Assembly (NCBI GenBank): GCA_963714015.1
Contig: OY970223.1
Location: 1,216,001 to 1,280,000, forward strand
Direction: 5' to 3'
Source: Vulcanimicrobiota bacterium
Lineage (GTDB): Bacteria; Vulcanimicrobiota; Vulcanimicrobiia; Vulcanimicrobiales; Vulcanimicrobiaceae
Length of the DNA stretch: 64,000 nt
How positions within the stretch are numbered: position 1 is the stretch's first letter; each line of letters opens with the position of its first letter. Under the pieces are notes generated by a model. The model was not told the origin of the DNA and did no database searches. It saw nothing but the letters and a program-made list of their open reading frames with translations. The position numbers were made by a program, and so were the translations under genes. Shown here in pieces: positions 17,756 to 20,220 of this stretch.

Positions 17756-18109
17756 TTCCATCCGAAGCCATTCCGTCGTGCCGCGAGTCTGCTCGTTGCG
17801 CTGCTGGAGTTCGCCGACGGCGATCCGGCGCCGCGCCGCCACGCCGCTCACGTCTACCGCGCTTATCTGCATGCGCTGCGCGCCGAATCATCCACTGCGC
17901 GGGAGCGTCGCTGGAAGCGCTTCGTCAACGCGCTGGCCGCGCACATCGGCTATGCGGGCGACTCAAACGCGAACGCTTCCATCCTTCACGAAATGGTTGC
18001 CGAGAACGCGGATCTTCTGGAAACTTCTACACTGTGGCGTTTTCGTATGCCAGCACGACTTGACGCGCATGCTCTATCGCGTCTTGCCGGAGCTGCGGCG
18101 GGTCGATGA
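17752..18109 (+). CDS. Possible small hypothetical protein, frameshifted near 17773
   Basis: ATGA overlap with MFS stop; removing one C gives MIPSEAIRRAASLLVALLEFADGDPAPRRHAAHVYRAYLHAL... with GC3-rich codons; 3' end uncertain (overlaps WYL gene). Confidence 0.4.
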
Positions 18110-18983
18110 CCCGCACGCACGCGCCCCACGAAGCAACGCTTGAGAGCGCCATCCGGTACTCCGGAAATCTGACGCAGAGCGTCTTTCCATGCGGTTCTTC
18201 CCGCAGGACGTCGACGTCGCTGTAGGCGGTCATCGTAACCATTTCGACCCATTCGGTTGGAACGAATACGATGGCTTCGCAGGCGTTCACCGTACGCTCG
18301 ACCGCGCTCATCGAGGAACGCCAGTGCTGCTCCAAATCAAAGTCCGCCGGACGCTGGAACACCGTGATCAGCATTTCCACCTCGACGATGCGATCGACGC
18401 GGAACGAACGCATGTCGCCGCCCGGCTCACGCGCGATTAAATACCAGATCCCGGCTTTGGAGACGAGGCCGAACGGATCCGCGATACGGTTCGTCGAGTT
18501 TCCCGCGCGGTCGCGGTAGGCGATCCGCAACTGGCGGTCGTCCCAGACGGCGCGCCGCAATTCTGCAAGAACGGGCGCGGGCTGCGCGGTGCGATACCAC
18601 TTATTGTGATCGAGAAAGATGCGCTGACGGGCTTGCTCGGCGGCGCGGCGCTGCAGCTCGGGTAATGCGCCGGAGAGCTTGACCAGGGCGTCGCGATGTC
18701 CGGTGACGCCCAGTTCGGAGAGAGGATCGGCGGCTGCGAGAAAGAGCGCGTGCAATTCGTCGGTGTTGAAACGCGTGATCGCTTGGCGATACCCCTCGGC
18801 CAATGCGATTCCGCCGTTGCTTCCGCGTTCCGCATACACCGGAACGCCCGCAGCACCCAAGCTGTCGGCGTCGCGATAAACCGTGCGCTTCGATACTTCC
18901 AATGCGCCCGCAAGCTCGCGCGCGCTGCGCGGACTACGCGCCTGCAGCATCAGCAGCATCGATAGGAGTCTGTCGGATTTCAT
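18027..18983 (-). CDS. YafY/PafB-like HTH-WYL-WCX transcriptional regulator
   Basis: MKSDRLLSMLLMLQ, ELAGALEVSKRTVYRD, DPFGLVSKAGIWYL, RSFRVDRI. Confidence 0.95.
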   Translation of the reverse strand: MKSDRLLSMLLMLQARSPRSARELAGALEVSKRTVYRDADSLGAAGVPVYAERGSNGGIALAEGYRQAITRFNTDELHALFLAAADPLSELGVTGHRDALVKLSGALPELQRRAAEQARQRIFLDHNKWYRTAQPAPVLAELRRAVWDDRQLRIAYRDRAGNSTNRIADPFGLVSKAGIWYLIAREPGGDMRSFRVDRIVEVEMLITVFQRPADFDLEQHWRSSMSAVERTVNACEAIVFVPTEWVEMVTMTAYSDVDVLREEPHGKTLCVRFPEYRMALSSVASWGACVRVIDPPQLRQDAIEHARQVVLAYENATV

Positions 18984-19318
18984 TTTGAAAGGCGCTCCGG
19001 CCTAGCCTCCGCGCCCCCCACGCTAAAGCGCGGGGCCCCCATCACCGTGGCGCGCGCACGATTCGTTCTTACGGAAGCCTCCCCGTGGGCGCGCCGAACA
19101 AAGATTTGTGCAACTCGCTCCGGCCTAGCCTCCGCGCCCCCCACGCTAAAGCGCGGGGCCCCCATTTCCGTGGCGCGCGCACGATCCGTTCTTACGCGAG
19201 CCTCCCCGTGGGCGCGCCGAACAAAGATTTGTGCAACTCGCTCCGGCCTAGCCTCCGCGCCCCCCCCGCTAAAGCGCGGGGCCCCCATTTCCGTGGCGCG
19301 CGCACGATCCGCGATCAT
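18980..19318 (-). CDS. Repeat-encoded 112-aa ORF (41-aa repeat), ATGA-coupled to both neighbours
   Basis: ATG 19318 overlaps the HMG-CoA lyase TGA; its TGA (18982-18980) overlaps the WYL ATG; MIADRARATEMGAPRFS...ERLSK. Confidence 0.45.
   Translation of the reverse strand: MIADRARATEMGAPRFSGGGAEARPERVAQIFVRRAHGEARVRTDRARATEMGAPRFSVGGAEARPERVAQIFVRRAHGEASVRTNRARATVMGAPRFSVGGAEARPERLSK
18993..19311. repeat. Tandem repeat, 123-bp period, about 2.6 copies (starts 18993, 19116, 19239), REP/BIME-like hairpins
   Basis: CGCTCCGGCCTAGCCTCCGCGCCCCCCACGCTAAAGCGCGGGGCCCCCAT... recurs three times with few substitutions; 73-bp block x3 and 50-bp linker x2. Confidence 0.97.
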
Positions 19319-20220
19319 CCCGCGGCGCGCTCCATGGCTTGAAAAGCTTTGCTGGTCAGCTCGTGATCCAAAACGCCCGCGATGAAGCGCGAGGCTGCGC
19401 GAACTTTCGTCAAATCGACGCCGGTCCGGATCTGCATGCCGTGCAGCATGTACAGCAGGTCTTCGGTGCCGAGATTTCCGGTGGCTCCGGGCGCGTAGGG
19501 GCAACCGCCCAGACCACCGCTGCTGGAGTCGAAGATTTCGATGCCGTGCTGAAGGGCGGCGTACACGTTTGCAAGCGCCGTCCCACGCGTGTCGTGAAAG
19601 TGCATGGCGAGCTTCGAGATCGGAATCTCTTGCCGCAGAAGCGGAACGAGCTCGTCAACCTGCGAGGGAACGCCCACACCGATGGTGTCCCCGATCGAAA
19701 TTTCGTCGCAGCCGAGGTCTAAGAGCCGCCGCGCGACCTGCGCAACCATCACGGGCTCGATTCGATCTCCGAAGGGCGAACCGAAAGCCGTGGACACGTA
19801 ACCGCGCACCCACATGTCGTTTTCCTTCGCGTTGCGCACGACGTCGCGAAACGTTTCGATCGACTGGTCGATCGTCATGTTGATATTGCGGCGGGTGAAC
19901 TCTTCGGATGCCGCCGTAAATACGCCGATAGCGTCTGCACCGGCGGCTTTCGCGCGCTCTAATCCTTTGACGTTCGGTGCGAGTACGGGATAGCGCACGC
20001 CGGAGCGCCGGTCGATCTTCGAAAAGACTTCCGCCGCGTCCGCGAGCTGCGGAATCGCCTTTGGGCTCACGAACGACGTCGTCTCGATCAGCGGCAGTCC
20101 GGATTCGGACAGCATGTCGATGTAGCGCACTTTATCGGCGGTCGAAACGACGGTGTGCTCGTTCTGAAGTCCGTCGCGCGGGCCCATCTCGCAAACCCGG
20201 ACGGCTGTTGGCAGACTCAT
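19315..20220 (-). CDS. Hydroxymethylglutaryl-CoA lyase (LiuE/HmgL-like)
   Basis: EMGPRDGLQNE, SFVSPKAIPQLAD, HFHDTRG, GGLGGCPYAPGATGN; ATG at 20220. Confidence 0.96.
   Translation of the reverse strand: MSLPTAVRVCEMGPRDGLQNEHTVVSTADKVRYIDMLSESGLPLIETTSFVSPKAIPQLADAAEVFSKIDRRSGVRYPVLAPNVKGLERAKAAGADAIGVFTAASEEFTRRNINMTIDQSIETFRDVVRNAKENDMWVRGYVSTAFGSPFGDRIEPVMVAQVARRLLDLGCDEISIGDTIGVGVPSQVDELVPLLRQEIPISKLAMHFHDTRGTALANVYAALQHGIEIFDSSSGGLGGCPYAPGATGNLGTEDLLYMLHGMQIRTGVDLTKVRAASRFIAGVLDHELTSKAFQAMERAAG

Follow-up and report, generated by a model that had tools for sequence, protein, structure and literature searches.

The window analysed here, 64,000 nucleotides of a Vulcanimicrobiota bacterium (GenBank assembly GCA_963714015.1, contig OY970223.1, positions 1,216,001 to 1,280,000), contains a tandem repeat array, which lies on the minus strand between the gene of an HMG-CoA lyase-like protein (hmgL) and the gene of a WYL-domain regulator. 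In our judgement the array is likely to have arisen through tandem amplification of a single element from a dispersed, non-autonomous repeat family, which occupies junctions between genes and would keep the translational coupling across them. In design the family is similar to the interspersed repetitive units of mycobacteria (MIRUs), which were reportedly described by Supply et al. in 1997.

Tandem Repeats Finder (TRF) detected a single array at window positions 18993-19311 (period 123, 2.6 copies, 96% matches). Its phase, 123 + 123 + 73 nt, corresponds to a 73-nt block present three times and a 50-nt linker present twice. In the direction of the genes, unit A (19189-19311, block plus linker, nhmmer model positions 28-105, its 5' end lacking the conserved 5' module called Box 1) is followed by unit B (19066-19188, block plus linker) and by the start-proximal block, unit C (18993-19065); TRF, phase and nhmmer were used to delimit all three. 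Between 18900 and 19400 the minus strand contains exactly two ATGA motifs, one at each border of the array and 331 nt apart. The first (19318-19315) contains the hmgL stop codon (TGA, 19317-19315; the gene ends in ...GCG GGA TGA) overlapping an ATG, and the second (18983-18980) contains the start of the WYL gene. From the ATG at 19318 a frame is open for 112 codons and terminates at the TGA inside the second ATGA, the stop of this putative relay open reading frame (ORF; 18980-19318) thus overlapping the WYL start. The units differ from each other by six nucleotides in four codons, all changes being non-synonymous (G/V, R/S, D/N, E/V), and neither the 112-aa relay ORF nor a 112-aa ORF on the opposite strand scored above the 27-bit cut-off in a Pfam search (best score 23 bits); from the translation, the variable codons and the Pfam result we do not regard the relay ORF as a protein gene. 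The hairpin CCCCGCGC-TTTA-GCGTGGGG is present three times in the array, and ACAAATCTTTGT twice, both times in the linkers. As to the array and its flanks, a preliminary description of this DNA was accurate. The flanking genes are hmgL (19315-20220, minus strand; Pfam HMGL-like, E 6.6e-49) and the gene of a 318-aa HTH_11 + WYL regulator (18027-18983, minus strand; Pfam WYL 1.5e-21, HTH_11 1.2e-13). The hmgL start at 20220 was inferred from the N-terminus MSLPTAVRV..., which gives 301 aa; the homologue at locus L019 has 307 aa.

The array is not a solitary structure. The source genome (G000; other G and L labels denote relatives and loci) is a single 3.56-Mb contig with 60.9% G+C, in which BLAST with one unit found many matching places, and iterated nhmmer searches detected 42 units in 25 loci. 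The units are about 110-131 nt long and are arranged head to tail in one orientation. TRF found nine arrays of the family with 1.8-4.8 copies each, at 161 kb (period 131, 1.8 copies), 524 kb (123, 2.9), 707 kb (129, 3.0), 799 kb (110, 4.8), 950 kb (127, 1.9), 1234 kb (123, 2.6), 2286 kb (123, 2.3), 2436 kb (129, 3.0) and 2759 kb (126, 1.9); the period is divisible by three in six of the nine. Units of the same array are 91-100% identical, whereas between loci identity is at most 88-89% and the linker differs. The arrays probably grow via local duplication, and copy number differs between genomes: in front of rplF there is one unit in G000 versus three in G007.

In BLAST searches with a unit, 14 of 24 other genomes of this bacterial family had matches, compared with none of 16 genomes of two sister families. 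A covariance model (R1), built from an alignment of 17 loci (A1), had 46 matches in our genome, which was the largest count, and was matched in 39 of 60 other Baltobacteraceae genera; these tallies and those of BLAST include genomes flagged as unpublished (G010, G021, G023, G046, G047), on which no individual claim depends by themselves. In a phylum-wide sample R1 matched 39 of 61 Baltobacteraceae genomes and none of 79 genomes of 20 other families, so that among the genomes searched the repeat family was found only in the Baltobacteraceae lineage of the phylum Eremiobacterota.

The copies are placed on start codons. In gene sense the element ends in ...GGGGGGCGCGGAGSCTAGGSCGGAGCGCC-TTTYAAA-ATG, and in 20 of the 25 loci of our genome an ORF starts within -2 to +3 nt of the end of the model. 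The other five comprise mreB, which starts at +11 and has its own GGAG, a start at +18, a doubtful case and two convergent copies without a gene. Only this convergent pair (L014, genome 2740121-2740283; one full copy and one 31-nt fragment) was found to depart from the start-codon rule; it lies beside a terminator-like hairpin and a tRNA-like 3' end. Wherever a copy adjoins a gene, the two have the same orientation; the neighbouring genes belong to operons and are co-directional, and in most loci the whole spacer is occupied by the element. Of 21 start-proximal copies at 20 loci of relatives, 15 have their end 0-2 nt away from the start codon and four at 4-11 nt, while two have no ORF. Neighbouring genes were named by a Pfam scan of 57 ORFs. 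Filled junctions in our genome are fabZ-lpxA, dciA-gyrB, atpH-atpA, murA-mreB, the E-F genes of a type II secretion system (T2SS), hmgL-WYL, sufS-sufU, an unnamed gene-fliG, fliG-fliH, flgE-flbD, rplB-rpsS, rpsQ-rplN, rplX-rplE, rpsH-rplF, map-rpmJ, pbpA-pknB and rpmE-prfA; the element also precedes a purP-like, an antiporter/nuo-like and an aminotransferase gene. The WYL gene is therefore one of about 20 unrelated downstream genes, and its association with the repeat is incidental.

Several of these junctions can be compared with their empty counterparts, and empty hmgL-WYL junctions, which the preliminary description had proposed to look for, do exist. Where our genome reads gggATGA-(331 nt)-ATGAaatcc, the metagenome-assembled genome of a Candidatus Baltobacteraceae bacterium (L019), whose WYL homologue is the closest one under a named record (71% identity), has ...ctccATGAaatcc, a 4-nt overlap with a single ATGA, and G002, a member of the same genus, has cccTGATGAaatcgg with TGATGA. 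To judge from these sequences, the element appears to have split an ancestral stop-start overlap at this junction, leaving ATGA on both sides. At rpsQ-rplN our genome has ccaaATGA-(64 nt)-ATGAttc versus ccaaGTGAtcc, a GTGA overlap, in G002 and gaaATGAtcc, an ATGA overlap, in G016. At pbpA-pknB an array stands between ggATGA and ATGAtcg, with ATGA also at the internal unit junctions, versus TTGA (G001) and GTGA (G002, G008) overlaps in relatives. In these three cases the filled site thus has a 4-nt direct repeat, ATGA...ATGA, versus a single NTGA overlap in the relatives. At dciA-gyrB, where three units lie between TAAcattcaATGA and GTGAgtaac, the spacer is 11 nt in G001 and 0 nt in G002, and G004 has an ATGA overlap; the former start codon apparently stands at the element's 5' border. 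The T2SS junction shows the old start ATGGTAAAC twice, at the 5' border and where the units meet inside the array (ATGGTAGAC), versus ATGGTAA overlaps in both congeners. At atpH-atpA (TGAtATGA-element-ATGAtc in our genome) G001 is filled, G016 has an ATGA overlap, and G008 and G004 have no element. The same spacer in G002 (L070) is 27 nt long and contains just the two element ends (TAGtatgaacacact and ggagcgccttactacATG), which looks like the internal deletion of a former copy. The hmgL, gyrB and T2SS arrays constitute one subfamily (Box 1 with CCCACGGGG) and are 88% alike; the gyrB and T2SS junctions are empty in both congeners and the hmgL junction is empty in G002 and L019, which fits a spread within the lineage of our genome after its split from the congeners.

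The 5' border and the interior of the element also deviate from what one would expect by chance. The upstream stop codon lies in an ATGA at 8 of 18 loci of our genome and at 11 of 18 evaluable loci of relatives, compared with 312 of 2436 long ORFs (12.8%, true overlaps included) in the genome as a whole (binomial P 1e-3 and 2e-6). The general enrichment of A at the fourth coding position (PMC5850271) is a known caveat for the ATGA at the 3' border; it does not apply to the ATGA at the 5' border. We defined a bridging chain as a series of ORFs leading from the upstream stop to the downstream start, each beginning -4 to +12 nt from the previous stop, and compared the loci with dinucleotide-preserving shuffles of the interior in which borders and tail were kept. 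Such chains exist at 10 of 18 loci of our genome (3.67 expected, Poisson-binomial P 1.3e-4) and at 13 of 18 loci of relatives (5.2 expected, P 6e-6). As the loci are homologous and in part orthologous, the evidence is at best as strong as these P-values, and those for the 5' ATGA, suggest. The chain can be a single ORF, as at hmgL-WYL (112 codons) and at dciA-gyrB (129 codons), and two chains are linked throughout by ATGA: ATGA-44-ATGA-26-ATGA in the array at 161 kb (aroE-like) and ATGA-86-ATGA-42-ATGA at pbpA-pknB. The bridging frames differ among loci or are absent. The tail closes both non-gene frames with stops beside the AUG (TAA in TTTTAAAATG, TGA in ATGA); the frame of the gene itself is closed by the TAGs of two hairpins, P2 and P3. 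At the nuo/antiporter-like locus (L017:2994-3109) and at the 753-kb locus (L005:3001-3132) the frame of the upstream gene traverses the element and has its stop at or beyond the next start, so that the element encodes a C-terminal extension there.

RNAalifold, applied to alignment A1, predicted P2 as CCCC-NNNN / NNNN-GGGG, P3 as GGCGC-GGA-(GSY-NAG-RSC)-GGA-GCGCC, and a short closing helix of Box 1 with a middle box. Across the 19 consensus pairs 96.5% of the cells pair. Changes on both sides of a pair were found in 27 cells, versus 9.1 +/- 2.2 in shuffles (none of 500 reached 27) and at most 4 in slid controls. The inner stem of P3 covaries (GC/CG 9:7, CG/UA 11:5), and the imperfect GGCGC...GCGCC ends pair in the consensus fold with three pairs, one of them covarying. 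Five G.U pairs occur on the sense strand, and one C.A would be G.U on the other strand. In the window the P2 copies, a hairpin that covaries across loci, are at 19262-19281 (copy 1, with G in place of T, hence a G.G mismatch or a shifted register), 19139-19158 (copy 2) and 19016-19035 (copy 3), all on the minus strand, as are the other modules. Box 1 (GGCGCGCCCACGGGGAGGC), conserved across loci, is at 19077-19095, with a second copy at 19200-19218. P3 of the start-proximal unit (GGCGC-GGA-GGC-TAG-GCC-GGA-GCGCC, 18991-19015) is the only one in this array with an intact outer stem; in those at 19237-19261 and 19114-19138 a terminal GCGAG breaks it. The tail TTTCAAA (18984-18990, family consensus CCTTTYAAAATG) separates P3 from the ATGA of the WYL start (18980-18983). 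The GGA(G) on the 3' side of P3, 11 nt before the AUG, is Shine-Dalgarno-like, and the 16S rRNA 3' end (...CACCTCCTT) carries CCTCC. We also considered GGAGCGCC as a general ribosome-binding motif and rejected it (378 occurrences versus 336 expected, with about five extra degenerate copies next to starts). A promoter or leaderless-start interpretation of the TAAAAT tail was also discarded, since the -10-like hexamer and the ATG itself overlap.

These features suggest that the element is probably built in such a way that ribosomes can pass through it, by means of a relay frame and a built-in initiation module, and possibly that the host has co-opted it as a structured region for initiation. What we infer from the sequence are its transcription, the translation of its frame, the coupling and the way it spreads. 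The element lies in gene-sense orientation between two co-directional genes, with its 5' side at or next to the upstream stop, often as A|TGA, and with a 3' side made up of P2, P3 holding the GGAG, and CCUUUYAAA, ending exactly on the downstream start codon. Ribosomes that end translation of hmgL would start anew at the overlapping AUG and translate the 112-codon frame, unfolding P2 and P3 en route. At the UGA, which overlaps the WYL AUG, they would terminate and then initiate again; with such a relay the insertion would be non-polar. Because the tail has stops in both non-gene frames and P3 has an SD-like GGAG, copies with a broken frame could still deliver or recruit ribosomes.

It must be noted that several observations weigh against this interpretation of a MIRU-like junction element. 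A bridging chain is missing at 13 of 36 loci, among them 5 of 18 in relatives and, in our genome, murA-mreB, sufS, fliF, fliG-fliH, flgE, rplX, rpsH, map and rpmE. The periods 131, 110 and 127 (three of nine arrays) are not multiples of three, hence the idea that copy-number change keeps the frame, which the preliminary description had derived from the 41-codon period of the present array, does not extend to the family as a rule. At rplB-rpsS, rplX-rplE and rpsH-rplF the element has an (A)TGA at its 5' border, but the relatives have TAATG or TAA-N-ATG (up to N2-3), so the (A)TGA there cannot be a plain target duplication. Fold energies are weak (mean z -1.1 for the sense and -1.6 for the antisense strand); they are not unusual for the composition and do not separate the strands. 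Neither a mobilising gene nor an autonomous partner was found by the searches described below for PF01797 and Box 1. The copy number of the array at hmgL-WYL is supported by one assembly: the contigs of three public DNA runs contained no piece spanning it, and exact-match scans of metagenome contigs for its 3' and 5' junctions gave no match. Finally, in the rplF and rpsS pairs the last 60 nt of the element are 0.80-0.85 identical versus 0.57-0.61 at 4-fold sites (rplF 0.80 versus 0.57), and a 3' part more conserved than 4-fold sites indicates constraint at the level of the host rather than a merely tolerated parasite. For rpsS, 22 of 36 4-fold sites, a small sample, are identical between our genome and G001. 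The other four same-junction pairs have 0.64-0.70 identity over the last 60 nt.

This conservation is also in line with an alternative that we consider unlikely, namely that P2, P3 and the tail are a host cis-regulatory RNA, a conserved structured translation-initiation region of which the open frames and the ATGA flanks are by-products. It could act as an SD gate opened by an upstream ribosome or by a factor, or as an intercistronic stabiliser or processing site. The covariation of P2 and of the inner P3 stem, the excess of G.U pairs on the sense strand and the position of the GGAG relative to the AUG and the 16S rRNA tail would all be expected of such an RNA. The same is true of the occupation of the same junctions in different genera with shared locus-specific variants: GAAGCGCCGTTAGAT at rpmJ and GCAGCTCAGAG at rpsS in G000 and G001, GCAGCGCC at fliH in G000 and G009, and GCTTAGAGC at rplF in G000 and G007. 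The P2 stems of the two rplF copies differ in sequence and both still pair, an indication of selection acting in place on the structure, or of gene conversion. Against a purely regulatory RNA stand the variation within a single genus (G002 is empty at rplB-rpsS, rpsQ-rplN, rplX-rplE, rpsH-rplF, hmgL-WYL, pknB and gyrB), the 21 of 60 other genera without a match, the lack of a common function among the downstream genes, a copy number ranging from 1 to 5, and the lack of any Rfam match (at E <= 1 in a scan of 18500-19800 in the window). A pure RNA-structure role would predict neither the frequent 5' ATGA nor the excess of bridging ORFs relative to shuffles. A regulatory RNA can coexist with the MIRU-like junction element as its later co-option.

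The other explanations have less in their favour. That the array is an artefact of assembly, or codes for a true 112-aa repeat protein, could be argued from the lack of reads confirming its copy number and from the existence of the open frame, but nine arrays of the family in our genome, arrays in other assemblies (e.g. the three units before rplF in G007), the exclusively non-synonymous differences between units, the Pfam result and the use of other frames, or of none, at other loci make either of them very improbable. The preliminary description had compared the hairpins with those of repetitive extragenic palindromic (REP) sequences or IS200/IS605, elements moved as single-stranded DNA by a Y1 transposase (RAYT/TnpA). 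The GC-rich hairpins, in which changes are compensatory, and the dispersal of many copies agree with this kinship, which we nevertheless consider hardly tenable. A search for PF01797, the Y1 transposase family, had no match in our genome, whereas the control search had matches in 6 of 14 named genomes. A Y1 gene was found in 5 of 61 genomes of the family (G016, G062, the unpublished G069, G075 and G077) with no relation to element counts: G016 and G069 have no element, and the richest carriers, G000, G009, G015 and G017, have no Y1 gene. Moreover, the units are 110-131 nt long, strictly gene-sense and on start codons; they do not occur mainly at 3' ends or as inverted pairs. Apart from a 30-bp tandem before fliG, the Box 1 motif was confined to copies of the element, and thus no autonomous partner came to light. 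That tandem consists of five repeats of Box 1 alone (GGCGCCCTCGGGGAGTGAACGAATCTCCCC) and lies ahead of the element (L009:2852-2990, genome 1950426-1950546). A last proposal was that the array is tied to the WYL regulator as a tunable RNA or single-stranded DNA ligand or as an operator array for the WYL domain; the preliminary description had mentioned a link with the WYL protein as an alternative. The proposal draws on adjacency only, the element precedes about 20 unrelated genes, and the WYL homologues of L019, G002, G009 and G015 have no element upstream; we give this proposal almost no credence. With respect to the dispersed junction element itself, the preliminary description had supposed a mobile sequence targeting ATGA overlaps, and the multi-copy nature of the block, the non-random and co-oriented placement, the 5' ATGA and the open frames across copies are in agreement with it.

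It is interesting to compare the family with known systems. According to the available excerpts of PMC12548453, MIRUs insert at start codons with an ORF coupled at -4, and those of PMC3184786 describe sequences of 40-100 bp in 40-50 copies, with empty and filled sites, tetranucleotide direct repeats, imperfect terminal inverted repeats, GC-rich internal inverted repeats and ORFs overlapping the neighbouring genes. As far as these excerpts allow a comparison, both families consist of dispersed, non-autonomous intergenic repeats inside operons, which lie on start codons with an ORF stop overlapping the gene start (-4, ATGA), show tetranucleotide direct repeats at filled versus empty sites, have imperfect terminal and GC-rich internal inverted repeats, and form tandem arrays. 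The likeness is one of design, and Rfam contains no MIRU family. The present family differs by occurring in Eremiobacterota and not in Actinomycetota, by its longer units (110-131 nt versus about 40-100 in the MIRU excerpts), by its two covarying hairpins and its fixed 3' module (GGAG hairpin, A/U tail, off-frame stops), and by the absence of a continuous relay at about a third of the loci.

Other repeats share fewer properties with it. REP/BIME and REPIN sequences, the latter with RAYT, are GC-rich hairpin repeats often situated between operon genes, and they can stabilise upstream mRNA. The present repeats likewise are GC-rich hairpin repeats between the genes of one operon, but the genome has no Y1/RAYT gene, and the units are far longer and modular, strictly gene-sense, abut the start codon and contain bridging ORFs. 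REP/REPIN units are about 20-65 nt long, palindromic and typically in inverted pairs, whereas the present units stand head to tail, the pair at 2740121-2740283 being the sole convergent one. Miniature inverted-repeat transposable elements such as Correia/NEMIS and ERIC are about 100-150 nt long, have imperfect terminal inverted repeats, are co-transcribed with their neighbours and are polymorphic for presence and absence. The length, the imperfect terminal inverted repeat (GGCGCYC...GRGCGCC) and the presence/absence polymorphism are shared by the present family; in contrast, no related autonomous insertion sequence was detected by the Box 1 search, the copies have a single orientation, and the insertion point is the start codon rather than a TA/TNA target. 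Synthetic bicistronic design (BCD) leaders, mentioned alongside MIRUs in the available excerpts of PMC12548453, are also comparable, being short leader ORFs that hold the SD of the next gene and stop on its start. Since the leader ORF spans the SD and stops on the start, ribosomes unfold the local structure and deliver initiation. Unlike BCD leaders, the present element is natural, repeated and probably mobile, not engineered.

In the literature searched, part of which was available as excerpts, such an element was described neither in Eremiobacterota nor elsewhere outside mycobacteria, and MIRUs were the only example found there of start-codon-homing repeats that hand ribosomes on. The present repeats would be a second, large family of the MIRU design, in an uncultured non-actinobacterial phylum, which suggests that the design is a general solution for bringing DNA into tightly packed operons without polarity and that it may have evolved repeatedly. 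The many pairs of filled and empty sites, together with the covarying hairpins, constitute a natural test set for the rules of termination-reinitiation and of target choice. We consider it conceivable, but doubtful, that the element is more than this: a portable, structure-gated coupling module co-opted by the host, which combines a P3 gate, a copy-number dial and start-codon-directed spread. If so, P3 would hide the SD and the downstream gene would be translated only when a ribosome arrives via the relay frame. Copy number and frame continuity would be a heritable setting of the downstream/upstream protein ratio, at this locus of WYL regulator per HMG-CoA lyase. Spread, directed to start codons, would use microhomology at ATGA and need no dedicated transposase.

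The repeats are also a hazard for annotation, as several upstream genes run into the element and spurious ORFs of at least 100 aa cross the arrays. In the window two antisense ORFs cross the array, at 19047-19385 (plus strand, 112 aa) and 19085-19342 (plus strand, 85 aa); both are likely artefacts of the G+C-rich repeat, which could be mis-annotated as genes. In four relatives (G002, G008, G016, G030) map and rpmJ are separated by infA, in place of which our genome has a three-unit array (L011:12660-12948, genome 2286726-2287014); a 54%-identical infA homologue is present elsewhere in our genome (2604412-2604681). A separate array (L018, genome 1505126-1505428; period 125 bp, 2.4 copies) contains a P2-like hairpin, CCCCCCGCACGC-TAA-GCGCGCGGGG, in a different sequence context and may be a second, related repeat family. 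In G008 (L057), which has no match to the element, another GC-rich repeat of about 100 nt (...gagcggccgagtggc...cggggggccgtgccgccccgtttt...) is situated just upstream of the rpmJ and rpsM starts, and it seems to be a second type of element that uses the same kind of site.

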